From: Bacillota bacterium
GTDB lineage: Bacteria; Bacillota; Clostridia; Peptostreptococcales; Anaerovoracaceae
Assembly (NCBI GenBank): GCA_052034085.1
Contig: JBPOJA010000026.1
Coordinates: 414-64,413 of the forward strand
DNA: 64,000 nucleotides
Reading direction: 5' to 3'
The translations under genes were made by a program, and so were the position numbers. This document shows, piece after piece, positions 29,901 to 36,666 of this stretch (the stretch's first letter is position 1; each line of letters opens with the position of its first letter). The notes under the pieces were generated by a model that did not search any database, was not told where the DNA came from, and was given only the letters and a program-made list of their open reading frames with translations.

Positions 29901-30944
29901 CTAGTTGTTTTTGGCCAGAAACTCCTTCATTTTGACTATCATGAAGTCAATGTCTTCGCGGCTCACATTGGCGTTAGTCACAAAACGCCACTCTCCCAGC
30001 TCTTTTCCGTTAACTTTAATGCCGTTGTTAAATAAATATTTAACTAAAGCATCTTCTTCGGTCTTTGACATATCAGGTTCGGTCTGGAAAAAGACCATAT
30101 TGATGTCCCGGCGGTCTTCCATGACTTTGATGCCGGGGAGTTTGGAGAGCTGGTCGGCCATGTAGGCTGCATTTTCGTGGTCTATATTAAGCCTCTTGGT
30201 CATTTGCTCAAGTGCAATGATGCCGGCGGCGCCCAGGATACCGGCCTGCCTCATGCCGCCGCCCATAAGCTTTCTGCCGCGTTTGGCCTTATCGATGAAT
30301 TCTTTGCTGCCGACTACCATGGAACCAACCGGCGCTGACAATCCTTTGGACAGACAGAACATTACCGAATCGGCGCAGGCGGCGATTTCTTTAACATCAA
30401 TGCCCAGAGCAACTGCCGCATTGAAAATCCGGGCGCCGTCCATGTGAACGGGTATGCCGTATTTTTCGCCTATTGCTTTGATAGCCTTCAGGTTTTCCAG
30501 AGGCACCGCAACTCCTGAACCGTGAGCGTTTTCCACGCAAATCAGCCCGGTCCTGGGATAATGGATATCGTCCGGATCCCTGATGGCGCCTTCCACTTCG
30601 GAGGGGTCAAAGGTGCCGTATTTGGTATCCAGCGTCCAGAGCTGCACGCCTGCTATAACGGCGGCACCTCCTGCCTCATGAATCAGTATGTGACTTTCTT
30701 TGCCCAGAATTATTTCGTCGCCCCTGTTGGTGTGTGCGAGAATGCAGAGCTGATTGCCGAAAGTTCCGCTGGGCACGAAGAGTGCGGCTTCTTTTCCAAG
30801 CATTTCCGCAGCCAGAGCCTGGAGTCTGTTCATGGTGGGGTCATCATCGTAGACGTCATCTCCTACTTGAGCCTCTGCCATGGCTTTTCTCATTTCTGCC
30901 GTGGGCATGGTTACTGTGTCGCTTCTCAAATCGATGTACTTCAT
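29901..30944 (-). CDS. ltaE: Low-specificity L-threonine aldolase
   Basis: 347 aa. The opening DLRSDTVTMPTAEMRKAMAEAQVGDDVYDDDPT and the PLP-lysine context (FCLSKGLSAPVGS) match. Confidence 0.9.
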   Translation of the reverse strand: MKYIDLRSDTVTMPTAEMRKAMAEAQVGDDVYDDDPTMNRLQALAAEMLGKEAALFVPSGTFGNQLCILAHTNRGDEIILGKESHILIHEAGGAAVIAGVQLWTLDTKYGTFDPSEVEGAIRDPDDIHYPRTGLICVENAHGSGVAVPLENLKAIKAIGEKYGIPVHMDGARIFNAAVALGIDVKEIAACADSVMFCLSKGLSAPVGSMVVGSKEFIDKAKRGRKLMGGGMRQAGILGAAGIIALEQMTKRLNIDHENAAYMADQLSKLPGIKVMEDRRDINMVFFQTEPDMSKTEEDALVKYLFNNGIKVNGKELGEWRFVTNANVSREDIDFMIVKMKEFLAKNN

Positions 30945-30974
30945 TTTTCGTCTCCCTTTGCAATTTTTGGCTTA

Positions 30975-31057
30975 CCGGCACGGAGCCGGGATGTCTTTTT
31001 ACAGCCGGCACGGAGCCGGGATGTCTTTTTACAGCCGGCACGGGGCCGGGACATCTG
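30975..31057. repeat. 30-bp tandem repeat, 2.8 copies
   Basis: CCGGCACGGAGCCGGGATGTCTTTTTACAG occurs twice plus a partial copy. Each unit holds the small hairpin CCGGC-ACGGA-GCCGG. The array lies in the ltaE upstream region. Confidence 0.85.
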
Positions 31058-31062
31058 AAATT

Positions 31063-31133: not shown

Positions 31134-31207
31134 TCAGGACATCTTTGTGCTCAGGTACTAATCTCCGGGCATCTTTGTACTCAGGCCTTAATCTCCGGGC
31201 ATCTGAG
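31134..31207. repeat. Second 30-bp tandem repeat, about 2.5 copies, overlapping a gene 3' end
   Basis: TCAGGTACTAATCTCCGGGCATCTTTGTAC / TCAGGCCTTAATCTCCGGGCATCTGAG, plus a partial copy at 31134. The TGA stop of the 301-aa ORF lies inside the last unit. Confidence 0.75.
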
Positions 31208-32086
31208 ATAGTGCTCTACAATGCTCAGCAGCTGTTCTCCGCTTAAGGCCAGCAGATTAATTTCTTCGTCGCCCATCGAAAGGTAAATTATATCTCTCAG
31301 GCCGGCAACAAAAGCAAGTCCGGTGTCAAATGTAACTTCTCCCTCTTCATCCAGGGAAAACAGTTCAAGCACCACCATGGCTTTGGGTACAAGCATACTT
31401 CTTGCCATTTCTGCCAATTCATCATTAAGTCTGTAATCTCCTTCAACCAGGCCCTTTTCTTTCAGGGATTCAAGAAGTTTCTTCACGTCTGCTTTTTCCG
31501 GCGGTTCATAGCCATAGCTTTCGATCAGTATCTTTGTCATACTGTTGCCTTTAGAGTCAAACAAGGCATCCGCCACGGCTTTTTCATCGTATGTGTCATG
31601 CAGTTCCGCTGCACCGCCCTGATAAAGAAGATTATTTTTTCTGTATGCGTCAACCAGCGCAAACAACACAAGCATCTCTTTTGAAGCTGCTTCAACTTCG
31701 ATATCCGCAATCTTCATTTTTCCCATGCCCACAAATTCCGACAGGTAAATCATCATCATGTCAAATTCCAGCAACAGCTTGAATGACAGGTCTCCCATAT
31801 CGTTGTCAATCTGGACATATTTTTCGCCCATCCGGTAAACATATTTTTCAACGATCACCTTATCGTCCTGAATTGCCAGTCTTGCCGCACCGGTTCCTTT
31901 GGCCACCACTTCAAAGACCTCCGCGGCAGCGGCATCGAGGGCTCCGTTTTTCAAAATGCCTTTGCTTTCAAGACTCTTCGCCTCGGAACCGTCCATTGGT
32001 GCCTCCAGTGTCGTAAAGAGGCTAATCGGGGACTTTTCTTCCAACAGTTCTGCCACATAGGCCACTTCATTTATACTAAGTTTCAT
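31181..32086 (-). CDS. Hypothetical acidic cytoplasmic protein (301 aa), last gene of the 4-gene cluster
   Basis: Long ORF with no signal peptide or TM segment. I recognise no motif in it. It starts 22 nt after the stop of the 1037-aa gene. Confidence 0.6.
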   Translation of the reverse strand: MKLSINEVAYVAELLEEKSPISLFTTLEAPMDGSEAKSLESKGILKNGALDAAAAEVFEVVAKGTGAARLAIQDDKVIVEKYVYRMGEKYVQIDNDMGDLSFKLLLEFDMMMIYLSEFVGMGKMKIADIEVEAASKEMLVLFALVDAYRKNNLLYQGGAAELHDTYDEKAVADALFDSKGNSMTKILIESYGYEPPEKADVKKLLESLKEKGLVEGDYRLNDELAEMARSMLVPKAMVVLELFSLDEEGEVTFDTGLAFVAGLRDIIYLSMGDEEINLLALSGEQLLSIVEHYLRCPEIKA

Positions 32087-32108: not shown

Positions 32109-35100
32109 CTATATTAATTTTCGCACTCCGGCGGCAGTTGCCTTGCCCAGGGGTTTGCTCACATATGGTTTAACTACGAAAGAATCTGTTACATTCTTTC
32201 CGAGCTTGGCTCCGAAAACTTTTGTAATGGGGCCTGCCGCGCTTTTGATGAAGCCCGCTCCATCTCCCTCTGTTAATGGGAACTTGGGAAGAGTGGTCCC
32301 GGGAGCCGGCTTGGCCAGCTTATCACTGACATGAAGCATAGCTCCTTTTATCGAGCCTTCCACAAAGCCTTGTGCGGCACCTTCTGCTCCCTTATCAATA
32401 TAACCAGCTACGGTTTCACCTGTAACTACTGTGGCAAATTTGCCAGCCGCCCCGGGGACATAACCCCTTGCTGCAGCGGCTGCGCCCTTCACCGCGCCTT
32501 TCTTTAAACTCTTGACGGACCAGTCGCCGGATGCGCCTTCATAAGCCACATTTCTGACAAATTTGTAGCCTGCGTTGATTCCTTTCCCAACGGGTCCGGT
32601 TACCTTTCCCAGAGCATCCATTGAGGCATCGGCAGCATTCATAACTAGCGTGGCTCCGCCTTCTGCCCATGCTCCTACTCTATCCACGTGCATCCATCTT
32701 TCATATGACTGTTTGTTGAATGCATCATTTATACCTATTATTGCTTCCAGATCAGCCCTCGAAGAGACGTTATATTTCTTGAACAATTGACGGTACAGTT
32801 CATCTTTTTTGCGCTGTTGATCAATTTTCATTTCAGTTTCCCACACAAGGTAATCCTGAAGCGTCTCGCCTTTTACATTTTTCTCCCATTCTCTTTCTAT
32901 GAATTCCCTGTCTTTTTCAAGATTGGGTTTTACAACTTTCTCATAGGCTTCCATATCTAAGACACCGCCGGTTTCCGGATTGACATATTCGCCCGTTGCA
33001 GGGTCACGAACATATCTGGATATCCTGCCGGTATGGTCAGTTACCAGTTCAAGCTCATCCGGACCTTCGGGCATGCCTGTTCCCGGTGTGCCGGGTGTTT
33101 GGCCTGCATCCGGCCCTGCGGCCGCGGTTGCCGCAACACCGCTGTCAGGGGCACCGGTCTCGTAACCGCCTTCGGTTGTACCGGCTTCATGGCCGGCTTC
33201 GTAGCCGCCTTCATAGCTGTCGGTGGAAGTGCCGCCATCATATCCCGAATCGCCGCCGTCGTAGCCGCCGTCTTCGTCATATCCGCCGAAGACACCTCCC
33301 GACTCTCCTCCGGAAGCGCCGCCGGTCGCAGCGGCTATTTCGTTGTCACCTACTGAAACAGGATCGTTGGGATCGCCACCTGAGGCCCCCAGGGCTTCTG
33401 CAAGAATTGCCCAGGCCTCTGACTCTCTTTCAGAAATGAGCCTGCCCGAAGGTTTGGGTTTGGGCATTTCTTTAGGCTTAAGCGCATTCGAAATAGCTGT
33501 GGCAAGAAGGCCTACCAAGGGCGGGAAAAGCATTCCAGCCGCAGCTTCAAAGGGACTGTCGGGGCCCGGAATATTTCCGGCTCCATATGCCGCTCCTATG
33601 GCAGCAATTACATAGGAAGGAAGTTCATCCTTTACCTTGTAGCCTTTGCCGTTGAGATTGTATGTGTTGCTGTCAGCGCCTTTGTTCTTTGATGGCATTC
33701 TGTCGTAGTAACCGTTGCCGCCGACAGTCACTGAAATTACCCCGTTGATTGCTTTTTCGAAACGAATTTCGCCGTTGGCTGAAATCGCCGCTTTGTATGG
33801 CAGTCCGGTCAGGTCTGCCGCAAATTCCAGTTTGGCAACCGCATAATCCACTCCTCTTTCCAGCACGGGGCAGTTTTGCGAGAACGGCATGCCTTCGTAC
33901 TTGCCAATGATTTCAATGAATTCGCCTTTATCAATGACCGCCAGCACCTGATCATAGAGTTCTTTAGACTTCTCGGGTGGATCCACATCCCCCATGAGAG
34001 TTCTTATCTTATACAGAAATATGTTCATATTGTAAGTGCCGGTGAAAACCGTAAATTCTTCCGGTGCGGGTGAAACACTGACCGAAAACACCGGATCCCC
34101 GTCTTCGTCAAAATCCAATGCCCATTTATCATCGATGTCTAAGTAATACACTCCCGGAGGCAGTATAATGTCCGGCATAACCATCCAGAAAGTATTTGGC
34201 GCATTTCCGGGGCCGTAGCCCTGGGACTGGAATGCGGCCACCATCTCGTCTTCATCATTATAGATATATATGATGCCCGGCATGGCGCCTTCGCCGTTGT
34301 TCCAGGTGCTAAGAATTATTTCATCGATTATATAGCTTTCATCCAGTTCGAAAGCGGGGGCTTTATATGGTATTTCGACACCCATCCAGGTCGGTTCCTC
34401 CACCAGATCGGAGAGTACCCTATCCCAGAATTCATCGCTGAGTTCCTGGTTGCCGATTACTTCCGGTTCTTCTTCACCTAGCCACTTTACCAGTTTTTCT
34501 TTATATTTTTCATAGGCCTTGAAATCCATGCCTTTGACGAAATAACCCTCTGCCGGCCAGGCACCACCCGCCAGCTGAATCATGTATCTGCCTTTGGGCA
34601 ACACTATGGCATCTTCCGGATAATAGTAAACTATGGTATCGCCCTTCTGGCCTTCAAGCCTCTCGCCGTAATGTGGAGTATAATCCTCGATGCCTTCGGT
34701 ATTTTCCAGGTCTCCTATTAGCTCATCCTGTTCTTCGTCCGGTTCTCCATCCGGCATACCTCCCGTGTCATCGTAACCCGGAGGAGGCGGCGATGAAGGT
34801 GGCTGAACTTCTTTTAAGGTACCCACATAGGCTATTTCTCCCGAAAAGCCCTGATAGACATTGCCCTGATCCGAAACCAGAGCCATATACATAGGTTCAA
34901 GCAGAAGCCCCGGGAATGGAATATAGATGCCAGTCAGCACTGTGGTTTCCTTCACATCAAAGGTGAAGAATGCTTCGGTGCTGGGCTTGTTAAAATTGCC
35001 TCTGAAACCCACTACCAGGGTGTTTGCTCCTTCGTAGGTGAACTGAGAGGTGTACCAGCTGCCCTTTTGAACGATTGCTTTTTCGTAAGGTCTTTCGGGC

Positions 35101-35222
35101 GGTGCACCCTGGCCTGCCGCATAGCTTGAAAAAGGCATAAATGTCATGACCAGCAGATAGGCCAGCAATATTATGCTTAGCATCCGTCTCATTGTGCTAT
35201 TTTTAATTGGTCTCCTGATCAT
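32109..35222 (-). CDS. Large single-pass envelope protein (1037 aa), function unknown
   Basis: The N-terminus carries a signal peptide (MRRMLSIILLAYLLVMTFMPFSSYAAG). About 520 aa of extracytoplasmic sequence follows, interrupted by a Pro/acidic linker. A hydrophobic span (AAAGMLFPPLVGLLATAISNAL) is followed by KPKEMPKPKP. Next comes a Gly/Asp/Tyr-rich low-complexity stretch of about 110 aa. The C-terminal ~330 aa comprise a charged helical region and a Gly/Ala/Lys-rich tail. Confidence 0.7.
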   Translation of the reverse strand: MIRRPIKNSTMRRMLSIILLAYLLVMTFMPFSSYAAGQGAPPERPYEKAIVQKGSWYTSQFTYEGANTLVVGFRGNFNKPSTEAFFTFDVKETTVLTGIYIPFPGLLLEPMYMALVSDQGNVYQGFSGEIAYVGTLKEVQPPSSPPPPGYDDTGGMPDGEPDEEQDELIGDLENTEGIEDYTPHYGERLEGQKGDTIVYYYPEDAIVLPKGRYMIQLAGGAWPAEGYFVKGMDFKAYEKYKEKLVKWLGEEEPEVIGNQELSDEFWDRVLSDLVEEPTWMGVEIPYKAPAFELDESYIIDEIILSTWNNGEGAMPGIIYIYNDEDEMVAAFQSQGYGPGNAPNTFWMVMPDIILPPGVYYLDIDDKWALDFDEDGDPVFSVSVSPAPEEFTVFTGTYNMNIFLYKIRTLMGDVDPPEKSKELYDQVLAVIDKGEFIEIIGKYEGMPFSQNCPVLERGVDYAVAKLEFAADLTGLPYKAAISANGEIRFEKAINGVISVTVGGNGYYDRMPSKNKGADSNTYNLNGKGYKVKDELPSYVIAAIGAAYGAGNIPGPDSPFEAAAGMLFPPLVGLLATAISNALKPKEMPKPKPSGRLISERESEAWAILAEALGASGGDPNDPVSVGDNEIAAATGGASGGESGGVFGGYDEDGGYDGGDSGYDGGTSTDSYEGGYEAGHEAGTTEGGYETGAPDSGVAATAAAGPDAGQTPGTPGTGMPEGPDELELVTDHTGRISRYVRDPATGEYVNPETGGVLDMEAYEKVVKPNLEKDREFIEREWEKNVKGETLQDYLVWETEMKIDQQRKKDELYRQLFKKYNVSSRADLEAIIGINDAFNKQSYERWMHVDRVGAWAEGGATLVMNAADASMDALGKVTGPVGKGINAGYKFVRNVAYEGASGDWSVKSLKKGAVKGAAAAARGYVPGAAGKFATVVTGETVAGYIDKGAEGAAQGFVEGSIKGAMLHVSDKLAKPAPGTTLPKFPLTEGDGAGFIKSAAGPITKVFGAKLGKNVTDSFVVKPYVSKPLGKATAAGVRKLI

Positions 35223-35776: not shown

Positions 35777-36328
35777 TTAAAGATTCCCAAAGACAGACCA
35801 GGAGATGAGCACAAGGGCTCCCACCAGGCTGGCTATGGGGACACTGAGAGCATTTTTCCCGCCGGTTAGTTCCCGTATCGTAAACATCATGGGGCCTATT
35901 GCCCAGAGAACTCCGGTTACGCCAAAGGCAATGGAAGTTTTCCAGCCTAGGGCAAGTGAAAAAATAATTCCTAAAATTCCGTAAATCAAGGCGCCGCTGT
36001 AGCTTAAACAAAAAGCGGATACCGCCTCAAGAATGCTCTTGTCCGTTTTCGCGGCTTTTAATATGACCCAAACTACCACTCCAAGAATAGGAATGACAAC
36101 CAGTCCGTAGGCCAGCCCTGTTCCGGCTGAAAAAATCACAAAACCCGTGCCTTTCTGGCCCGTTTTGTAAAGATCCATGCCGGTTTGCAGGAAGAACAGC
36201 CCAAAGGCCACGGCGGAAACCGCCGCAGATAAGTACCATTTGTTGGCAAAGGCATCTTTGATTGCACCCGAAGGATTAATCATCATGCCAAAAATGGTTC
36301 TGACCAGGGATCGTTTCTCCTGTTCCAT
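35777..36328 (-). CDS. Yip1-domain-like membrane protein (183 aa)
   Basis: The N-terminus IFGMMINPSGAIKDAFANKWYLSAAVSAV is followed by 5 TM helices, a layout typical of bacterial YIP1-family proteins. The assignment is by resemblance. Confidence 0.5.
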   Translation of the reverse strand: MEQEKRSLVRTIFGMMINPSGAIKDAFANKWYLSAAVSAVAFGLFFLQTGMDLYKTGQKGTGFVIFSAGTGLAYGLVVIPILGVVVWVILKAAKTDKSILEAVSAFCLSYSGALIYGILGIIFSLALGWKTSIAFGVTGVLWAIGPMMFTIRELTGGKNALSVPIASLVGALVLISWSVFGNL

Positions 36329-36441: not shown

Positions 36442-36469
36442 ATTATAACAATTTTAGGTGCATGTGTAA
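36442..36469 (-). promoter_or_regulatory. Sigma-A promoter of the 4-gene cluster
   Basis: The minus strand reads TTACAC-N16-TATAAT with an extended-10 TG (TGtTATAAT). It lies about 110 nt upstream of the Yip1-like start. Confidence 0.6.
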
Positions 36470-36487
36470 ATAAGAAAGTAGCGACTG

Positions 36488-36666
36488 TATGACGGTGGTA
36501 TGTATGACAGGGATGACAGTGGTGACAGTGGGACAGACCTTTTGACATGACAGACATGTATGACAGTGGGACAGACCTTTTGTCATATGACAGTGGGACA
36601 GACCTTTTGACATATGTCAAAAGGTCTGTCCCACTGTCATCATTTTGTCATCTGTCTCATTGTCTT
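36488..36666. repeat. GACAG palindromic element cluster, locus 1 (T/A variant)
   Basis: There are three direct copies of GACAGTGGGACAGACCTTTTG(A/T)CA plus one inverted copy. The last pair forms a 52-bp perfect palindrome at 36588-36639, centred on CATATG. The cluster is flanked by TGACAG/ATGACAG short repeats and begins about 3 nt after the stop at 36669. Confidence 0.9.

Follow-up and report, generated by a model that had tools for sequence, protein, structure and literature searches.

The 64,000-nucleotide (nt) stretch analysed here (the window: positions 414-64,413 of contig JBPOJA010000026.1, Anaerovoracaceae (Bacillota) assembly GCA_052034085.1) encodes at 32109..35222, on the minus strand, a protein of 1037 amino acids (aa), the product of the third gene in a co-directional set of four. 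Upstream lie genes for two small membrane proteins, the first of them Yip1-like, and directly downstream lies the gene for an acidic 301-aa protein, hereafter the partner (Table 1). An earlier sequence-only reading had proposed the 1037-aa open reading frame (ORF) with its strand unstated; the minus-strand frame is open throughout, and the plus strand is stop-ridden there. The ATG of the large gene overlaps the stop of the preceding gene (ATGA), with a sequence like a ribosome-binding site, GGGGGTGG, 6 nt 5' of the ATG. Dozens of independent assemblies, among them a complete genome of 3.1 Mb and a contig of 1.86 Mb, retain the full-length architecture, so the ORF is not a fusion artefact; it is a real gene of an uncharacterised family. 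That assembly or annotation joined two genes into one ORF, a doubt raised in the earlier reading, is vanishingly improbable: no sign of a fusion was seen, and the sole suggestive feature is a long low-complexity linker, against an open frame and the same recurring layout.

Searches with the whole protein at E ≤ 1 gave zero Pfam matches and no meaningful NCBIfam ones, and there was no PADLOC and no PDB sequence match. The earlier view that no characterised family has this layout agrees with these empty searches. Adhesin, S-layer and anti-sigma homology, which would have spoken against that view, was looked for and not found: the protein holds no anti-sigma, SLH, cell-wall-binding or adhesin domain, and no ECF sigma gene is among its neighbours.

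Table 1. Features of the four-gene module and of the 1037-aa protein in the window. AF2, AlphaFold2; pLDDT, predicted local distance difference test; TM, transmembrane. C-terminal classes are defined in the text.
Feature	Coordinates	Strand	Basis or property
Promoter-like TTTACA-17-TATAAT with TG extension	36442..36470	-	11/12 consensus matches; pattern match only
Yip1-like protein, 183 aa, first module gene	35777..36328	-	five hydrophobic spans
Polytopic membrane protein, 181 aa	35219..35764	-	translationally coupled to large gene (ATGA overlap)
Signal peptide, aa 1-35	35118..35222	-	basic n-region, h-region LSIILLAYLLVMTFMPF, SYA/AG; hydropathy scan
Ectodomain 1, aa 40-245, beta-sandwich with insertion loop	34488..35105	-	AF2 pLDDT 70-86 outside loop
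Ectodomain 2, aa 288-390, NxGxGAxPG motif	34053..34361	-	AF2 pLDDT ~80; homologous to ectodomain 1
Ectodomain 3, aa 393-535, eight long antiparallel strands	33618..34046	-	AF2 strands E395-531, pLDDT 73-87
Single TM helix, aa 558-581, AAGMLFPPLVGLLATAISNAL, then KPKEMPKPKPSGR	33480..33551	-	hydropathy scan
Conserved juxtamembrane segment, aa 582-628, ends SVGDNE	33339..33479	-	conservation
Acidic Gly/Asp/Tyr-rich disordered linker, aa 629-720	33063..33338	-	32% Gly, net charge -16, pLDDT <50
Beta-hairpin and three-helix coiled coil, aa 721-850	32673..33062	-	AF2 pLDDT 75-80; common to the three C-terminal classes
Class-B basic Gly/Ala helical tail, aa 851-1037	32112..32672	-	pI 9.8, net +11
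Partner, 301 aa, acidic, without TM or signal	31181..32086	-	EspG-like predicted fold

All parts listed in the sequence-only reading are present, although its "tripartite" layout proved too simple: the extracytoplasmic portion has three domains, and a conserved hairpin motif, DPxTGEWVNPETGG (aa 740-753, 5' of the coiled coil), had gone unmentioned. A hydropathy scan finds two hydrophobic spans only, at aa ~10-37 and aa 558-581. The first, with its basic n-region and SYA/AG, bears out the proposed signal peptide, for which the family consensus is ALA/A, ending ...LPLxALAA; the second is followed, as had been noted, by a positive-inside motif. Because there are only these two spans, a type I topology is predicted, with ~520 aa outside and ~455 aa inside. 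The C-terminal ~450 aa are most likely cytoplasmic, as the sequence-only reading had surmised, given the signal peptide, the single TM helix with its positive-inside KPK, and a partner that lacks both a signal peptide and a TM helix.

A word-indexed search returned 61 relatives of the large protein, exclusively from Clostridia, with Peptococcaceae, Phosphitispora and Petrocella among the named sources, and full-length relatives, again clostridial, number ~100. Homology in all 61 spans aa 11 to ~815-870, beyond which the C-termini diverge into three classes: A (29 sequences), B (22, including the window protein) and C (10). The class-B cassette of ~320 aa (hairpin with coiled coil and tail, or just the tail) is in turn preceded by unrelated N-termini in 57 of 202 proteins examined, these being other signal-peptide ectodomains with a Gly-rich TM helix, or multipass membrane domains. 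A core with three C-termini and a cassette behind unrelated N-termini indicate that both ends of the protein are exchangeable. In a profile search of 1.84 billion representatives, 1478 matches were obtained at E ≤ 1e-3, making the tail a widespread cassette borne by a variety of membrane proteins. Occurrence is patchy: none of 10 same-genus genomes has the large protein, and the partner is present in 9/400 genomes of the class. A search for an empty site in the same-genus genomes defined none; it found ltaE at ~71% nucleotide identity, on short contigs that do not carry the window's neighbour genes.

Which gene follows the large one depends on the C-terminal class. In class-B loci it encodes a partner of ~301-343 aa, which is not homologous to the downstream proteins of class A or class C. 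It accompanies the class-B tail in 10 of 12 loci, lying directly 3' of the tail gene in the window and at L002, L006, L013, L014, L027, L029, L031, L032 and L033; a second module at L027 has it close to the tail gene, on the upstream side. Linkage to the tail persists where the rest of the protein changes, since several partner-linked tail proteins begin with N-termini of another kind altogether and lack accompanying Yip1-like genes. L014, for instance, encodes a 621-aa protein with an unrelated ectodomain and has no Yip1-like gene, and both its tail and its partner find their nearest counterpart (55%) at L006. Identity matrices of tails and partners correlate with a Mantel r of 0.92 (reached by 0/5000 permutations), a value inflated by the near-identical pair L029/L032. 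Tail and partner are thus co-inherited. They also carry opposite charges: the window tail has a pI of 9.8 (17/21 tails have pI > 8), and the partners have pI 4.5-4.9. A C-terminal zinc ribbon, single or double, is found in 5/15 partner homologues (alignment A4; among them L006:13108-14139 and L014:9918-10931), and the window copy has none.

Exchange of C-termini together with a neighbouring gene invites comparison with polymorphic toxin systems (CdiA-CT/CdiI, Rhs, LXG), reportedly described by Zhang et al. in 2012. As there, a conserved N-terminal part carries alternative C-termini, each with a cognate, non-homologous small gene, and the C-terminal module and its partner move as one cassette. 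If the pair were of this kind, the N-terminal part would serve delivery, the C-terminus would be an exported toxin and the downstream gene would confer immunity, and weak, sub-threshold Anthrax_toxA/ATLF matches in 2/27 class-A proteins (E 2e-4) point the same way. We regard this as very unlikely: the C-terminus is predicted to lie in the producer's own cytoplasm; secretion ATPase, type VII secretion system (T7SS), Rhs, contact-dependent inhibition (CDI) and LXG parts were sought and not found; the three C-terminal classes are well conserved rather than hypervariable; no known trafficking or toxin domain reaches threshold; and the predicted fold of the partner is that of a chaperone, not a known immunity fold.

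The class-A C-terminus is itself a conserved globular region of ~250 aa (alignment A6; P0005 aa ~1000-1223; L004:10001-13678) with invariant R, K, D, GGP, H and W positions and no PDB sequence match. The gene downstream of it, for a 303-aa protein, is annotated DUF8367.

The partner of class B is predicted to adopt an EspG fold. Its AF2 model (pLDDT 91.3; predicted TM-score 0.86), compared with the PDB by Foldseek, has EspG1, EspG3 or EspG5 as all of its top 18 matches (E 9e-11 to 2e-8, probability 1.00; next match 9e-3), among them EspG5 bound to PE25-PPE41. Word-based homologue searching with the partner retrieved almost nothing, even with a profile.

The tail that this protein accompanies contains 16% Gly and 18% Ala. 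The earlier description of it as a basic Gly/Ala/Lys tail holds for charge and pI, whereas its length is 187 aa, not ~230. Six residues (Y886, G909, G913, G948, G952 and G956) do not vary among 19 class-B sequences of 33-49% identity; in a wider alignment of 21 tails this holds only for Y886 and G913. The glycine-zipper look noted before corresponds to G948-x3-G952-x3-G956 (nt 32343-32390). Shuffling the tail yields a four-Gly i,i+4 ladder in 8% of cases, yet GxxxGxxxG is invariant in the 19 sequences; position 960 is G, A or V. The tail thus has near its C-terminus the motif (G/A/S)xxxGxxxG of the membrane-depolarising glycine-zipper toxins of TelE/EsxX/TspA type. As regards the membrane-inserting alternative of the sequence-only reading, the tail helices are polar (mean Eisenberg hydrophobicity 0.0-0.26), and none has the hydrophobicity needed to cross a bilayer alone; the zipper helix averages 0.20 and carries E, Q, E and K. 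Profile searches with class-B tails gave no Pfam or PDB sequence match, and neither a YxxxD/E nor a WxG motif is conserved in the tail.

Published EspG-fold proteins (EspG, EsaE, TscG, TshG, T7SSi) all come from T7SS loci, and in the literature found the fold figures only as a chaperone of T7SS substrates (PMC11217815). Genomes carrying the partner have no T7SS markers: WXG100 proteins were sought in eight of them and found in 0/8, and an EssC search of eight carrier genomes returned only ordinary 700-870-aa FtsK/SpoIIIE proteins, none above cut-off. The T7SSi of Vallitalea was considered as a match and rejected, because it comprises an EssC-type ATPase and WXG100 genes, neither of which was found in the carrier genomes.

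Two groups of known systems come close. With EspG/PE-PPE of mycobacterial ESX (T7SSa) and with the EspG-fold proteins EsaE, TscG and TshG of Firmicute T7SS variants (PMC11217815), the present module shares a partner of predicted EspG fold, an acidic cytoplasmic protein that is encoded next to a helical client and tracks that client in sequence. It differs in that the carrier genomes lack WXG100 and EssC/EccC, the client is presumed to be the C-terminal tail of a membrane protein inserted by Sec rather than a free secreted helical dimer, the tail is without YxxxD/E and WxG, and the partner sequence falls below the Pfam threshold. EsxX is toxic from the cytoplasmic side and has its zipper sequestered by the soluble ExiAB; two polytopic membrane proteins from the same locus confer immunity (PMC12744356). 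Both EsxX-ExiAB-ExiCD of Staphylococcus aureus and TelE-TipE of Streptococcus gallolyticus resemble the module in a C-terminal glycine zipper (PMC12744356, PMC10434224), in an adjoining soluble cytoplasmic alpha/beta protein and in small polytopic membrane proteins within the locus. Unlike the 1037-aa protein, with its signal peptide, large ectodomain, TM helix and polar zipper helix and no T7SS in its genome, EsxX and TelE are LXG proteins exported by T7SSb; no LXG domain was matched by Pfam in the 1037-aa protein, and the fold of ExiAB is GyrI-like (DUF5085), in contrast to the EspG fold predicted here. The system would work like an EspG-client pair and resembles EsxX-ExiAB-ExiCD in gene logic, and it is a member of neither, because T7SS and LXG domain are both lacking and the sequence match to EspG stays below threshold.

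Taken together, we favour, at a probability of about 0.45, a reading in which the glycine-zipper tail of a Sec-inserted protein is held by a dedicated EspG-fold binder, independently of any T7SS. The ORF product is predicted to be a type I membrane protein of an uncharacterised, Clostridia-restricted family. Outside, it presents a duplicated pair of beta-sandwich modules and, next to the membrane, an eight-stranded beta domain; inside, a conserved juxtamembrane segment, an acidic disordered linker, a hairpin/coiled coil and an exchangeable C-terminal module. Its basic tail would be the client of the acidic EspG-fold protein encoded directly downstream. What the analysis shows is the architecture, the exchange of modules, the co-inheritance and opposite charges of tail and partner, the predicted fold of the partner and the lack of T7SS markers. 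From these we infer that the two bind physically, the partner shielding the tail in the cytoplasm and keeping it soluble or inactive, much as EspG acts at the helical tips of PE-PPE dimers and ExiAB at the EsxX zipper. The conserved TM helix and juxtamembrane region may complex with the two small polytopic membrane proteins. Release of the tail might depend on a signal. The module most likely acts as a transmembrane sensor or anchor whose cytoplasmic output is under chaperone control.

Several results weigh against this reading. For the tail, AF2 gives helices aa 854-969 a pLDDT of only 55-68, and a Foldseek search of its fold against the PDB and BFVD found no match. For the partner, the link to EspG is at fold level only: superposition on EspG structures gives TM-scores of 0.45-0.60 at a root-mean-square deviation of 6-8 Å, the match to Pfam EspG (PF14011) has E 1.3e-3 and 18.8 bits against a 27-bit cut-off, a PF14011 match of any strength occurs in 2/15 family members, and the partner profile finds no EspG among PDB sequences. 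The topology is drawn from hydropathy and the positive-inside rule, and the evidence for binding (adjacency, co-inheritance with its inflated Mantel value, opposite charge) is indirect. A distant partner homologue of 318 aa also occurs with no tail gene nearby (L028:7213-13042, L030:1796-7517). It is flanked on one side by a CheY-receiver protein of 645-676 aa that contains a long polyacidic linker, and on the other by the pilus ATPases PilB and PilT; these two cases in a pilus/CheY context indicate that the fold is not tied to a tail client alone.

What is new in the favoured reading is an EspG-type binder whose helical client is tethered to the membrane, with no T7SS, alongside a large protein of an uncharacterised family. 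The tail (here taken as aa 721-1037) and the 301-aa partner form a concrete pair; should they bind, they would define a large uncharacterised bitopic family with a chaperone-controlled cytoplasmic output, and a wider role for EspG-type proteins.

A rival interpretation is that of a self-directed membrane effector, in the manner of abortive infection or envelope surveillance: the ectodomain would sense an external event such as phage or envelope damage, the partner would let go, and the tail would depolarise the cell's own membrane from the cytoplasmic face, with the two small membrane proteins modulating or protecting. A conserved GxxxGxxxG in a basic amphipathic tail, and the EsxX gene logic of a soluble zipper binder plus two polytopic immunity proteins (PMC12744356), are in keeping with it, as are sensor-like N-termini and effector-like C-termini that can both be swapped, the patchy distribution of large protein and partner, and an adjoining DUF559-like gene (weak Pfam match, E 3.7e-3, below cut-off). 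Polar tail helices, none of them bilayer-spanning, speak against it; so do the absence of a PADLOC match or a toxin-domain match, the restriction to three C-terminal classes, each well conserved, and the fact that no known defence system shares the layout. On balance we hold it to be rather doubtful. A further, unlikely reading makes the module the type example of a T7SS-free modular envelope system in which a Sec-inserted sensor controls a zipper effector tail kept inactive by the EspG-fold protein, with sensors and effector/antidote cassettes swapped between loci. If true, self-directed membrane effectors of this sort (abortive-infection-like or for envelope surveillance) would form a class of their own, and the EspG fold would gain a second role outside secretion.

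Neighbours of the large gene code for membrane proteins and the EspG-fold protein, and include ltaE and a GNAT gene. The complete genome of Helicovermis profundi has the four-gene set by itself, whereas larger clusters also hold a ~480-aa LuxR/GerE regulator, zinc-ribbon membrane proteins, LemA and small secreted proteins. The GerE-type regulator heads the cluster at L004, L005, L006, L014 and L027, which would suit a signalling or scaffolding receptor without membrane activity, its cassette and EspG-fold protein serving as adaptors for cytoplasmic factors such as this regulator. The coiled coil in the cassette and the zinc ribbons of 5/15 partners are compatible with such a role, and the distant homologues between a CheY-receiver protein and PilB/PilT suggest an adaptor. 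We consider it unlikely, however, as the regulator was not found in the window genome or in Helicovermis profundi, both of which have the four-gene module only, and Pfam and NCBIfam searches found no kinase, cyclase or other known output domain.

At L027 (G079:C1:306000-325900), two back-to-back modules surround one GerE/LuxR regulator. The first comprises the core with a class-B tail (971 aa) followed by the partner; the second runs in the order partner-like gene, Yip1-like gene, small membrane protein and a 737-aa tail protein with a different N-terminus. At L014, a separate zinc-ribbon multipass membrane protein (L014:7123-8004, motif FLTFAQGGMYGG; compared with P0169 and P0119) lies upstream of the cassette protein, and its membrane domain is fused to the N-terminus of the cassette-bearing P0169, a fusion that suggests joint action of this domain with the cassette protein.

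The two small membrane proteins of the module are better conserved than the large protein (39-88% against 31-62% identity). Between loci, identity is 57-84% for the Yip1-like protein and 39-72% for the 181-aa protein, and the two are not homologous to each other. We know of no bacterial Yip1 protein that pairs with a protein like the 1037-aa one. The 183-aa protein resembles the Yip1 family (PF04893) in size, in its five predicted TM spans and in a match along its full length (profile positions 1-172 of 173; E 7.5e-5). It differs in that its 23.1 bits lie below the Pfam gathering score of 28.6 and no Rab-like GTPase occurs in its context. Bacterial and archaeal members of the Yip1 family have been reviewed (PMC5898192).

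Conservation within the large protein concentrates in ectodomain 3, the TM helix, the juxtamembrane segment to SVGDNE and the DPxTGEWVNPETGG hairpin. In the TM helix G563, L565, F566, P567 and L569 are invariant; across 62 sequences of the juxtamembrane segment A610 and D620 are invariant, and S623, G625, D626, N627 and E628 nearly so. The full-length AF2 model, built from 19 class-B homologues, has a mean pLDDT of 57.6, with confident regions (pLDDT 70-87) at aa 40-135 and 195-245, 290-390, 395-535 and 722-840 and disorder predicted for aa 576-720. Foldseek comparison of this model with the PDB and BFVD gave weak, generic beta-barrel/tail-protein matches only. The charged helical region expected from the letters is recovered as three helices at aa 757-849 (pLDDT 75-80). 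The Gly/Asp/Tyr tract had been described as a low-complexity core; it is present, at aa 629-720. Linker sequence and length vary across relatives, and the alignment indicates that the GGYD tract is only a lineage-specific version of a variable acidic, disordered linker.

Outside the membrane, the two ~200-aa segments of the earlier reading resolve into three predicted beta-rich domains, at aa ~40-245, ~288-390 and ~393-535. Ectodomains 1 and 2 align by hhalign with a probability of 89% (E 2e-6) and, on that comparison, are an internal duplication. The PPSSPPPP...EPDEEQDE stretch, formerly taken for an inter-domain linker, is instead a Pro-rich/acidic insertion loop inside ectodomain 1 (aa ~136-194, nt 34641-34817; AF2 pLDDT <50), and it occurs only in the window protein (P0001) and its 98%-identical twin (P0002). 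Ectodomain 3 lies within the best-conserved region of the family and holds most of its invariant residues; its Foldseek matches are weak only, to eight-stranded barrels of PsbO (E 7e-4), avidin and CRABP. The NxGxGAxPG module of ectodomain 2 recurs in 2-3 copies in unrelated secreted proteins (P0198, profile ~230-320 matches; L010-L012), one of which also has papain-like peptidase C1 and CHB_HEX_C domains; this recurrence suggests a general extracellular binding module.

Two features of the flanking DNA complete the description. Downstream of the module, at 30975-31019 on the plus strand, two identical hairpin-plus-T-tract units (CCGGCACGGAGCCGG GATGTCTTTT) stand 30 bp apart as a tandem repeat, and a spurious plus-strand ORF (30522-31058) renders them as a repeated peptide. 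Upstream, a terminator scan located a perfect palindrome with a 20-bp stem at 36590-36637, between the promoter-like site and the GNAT gene.

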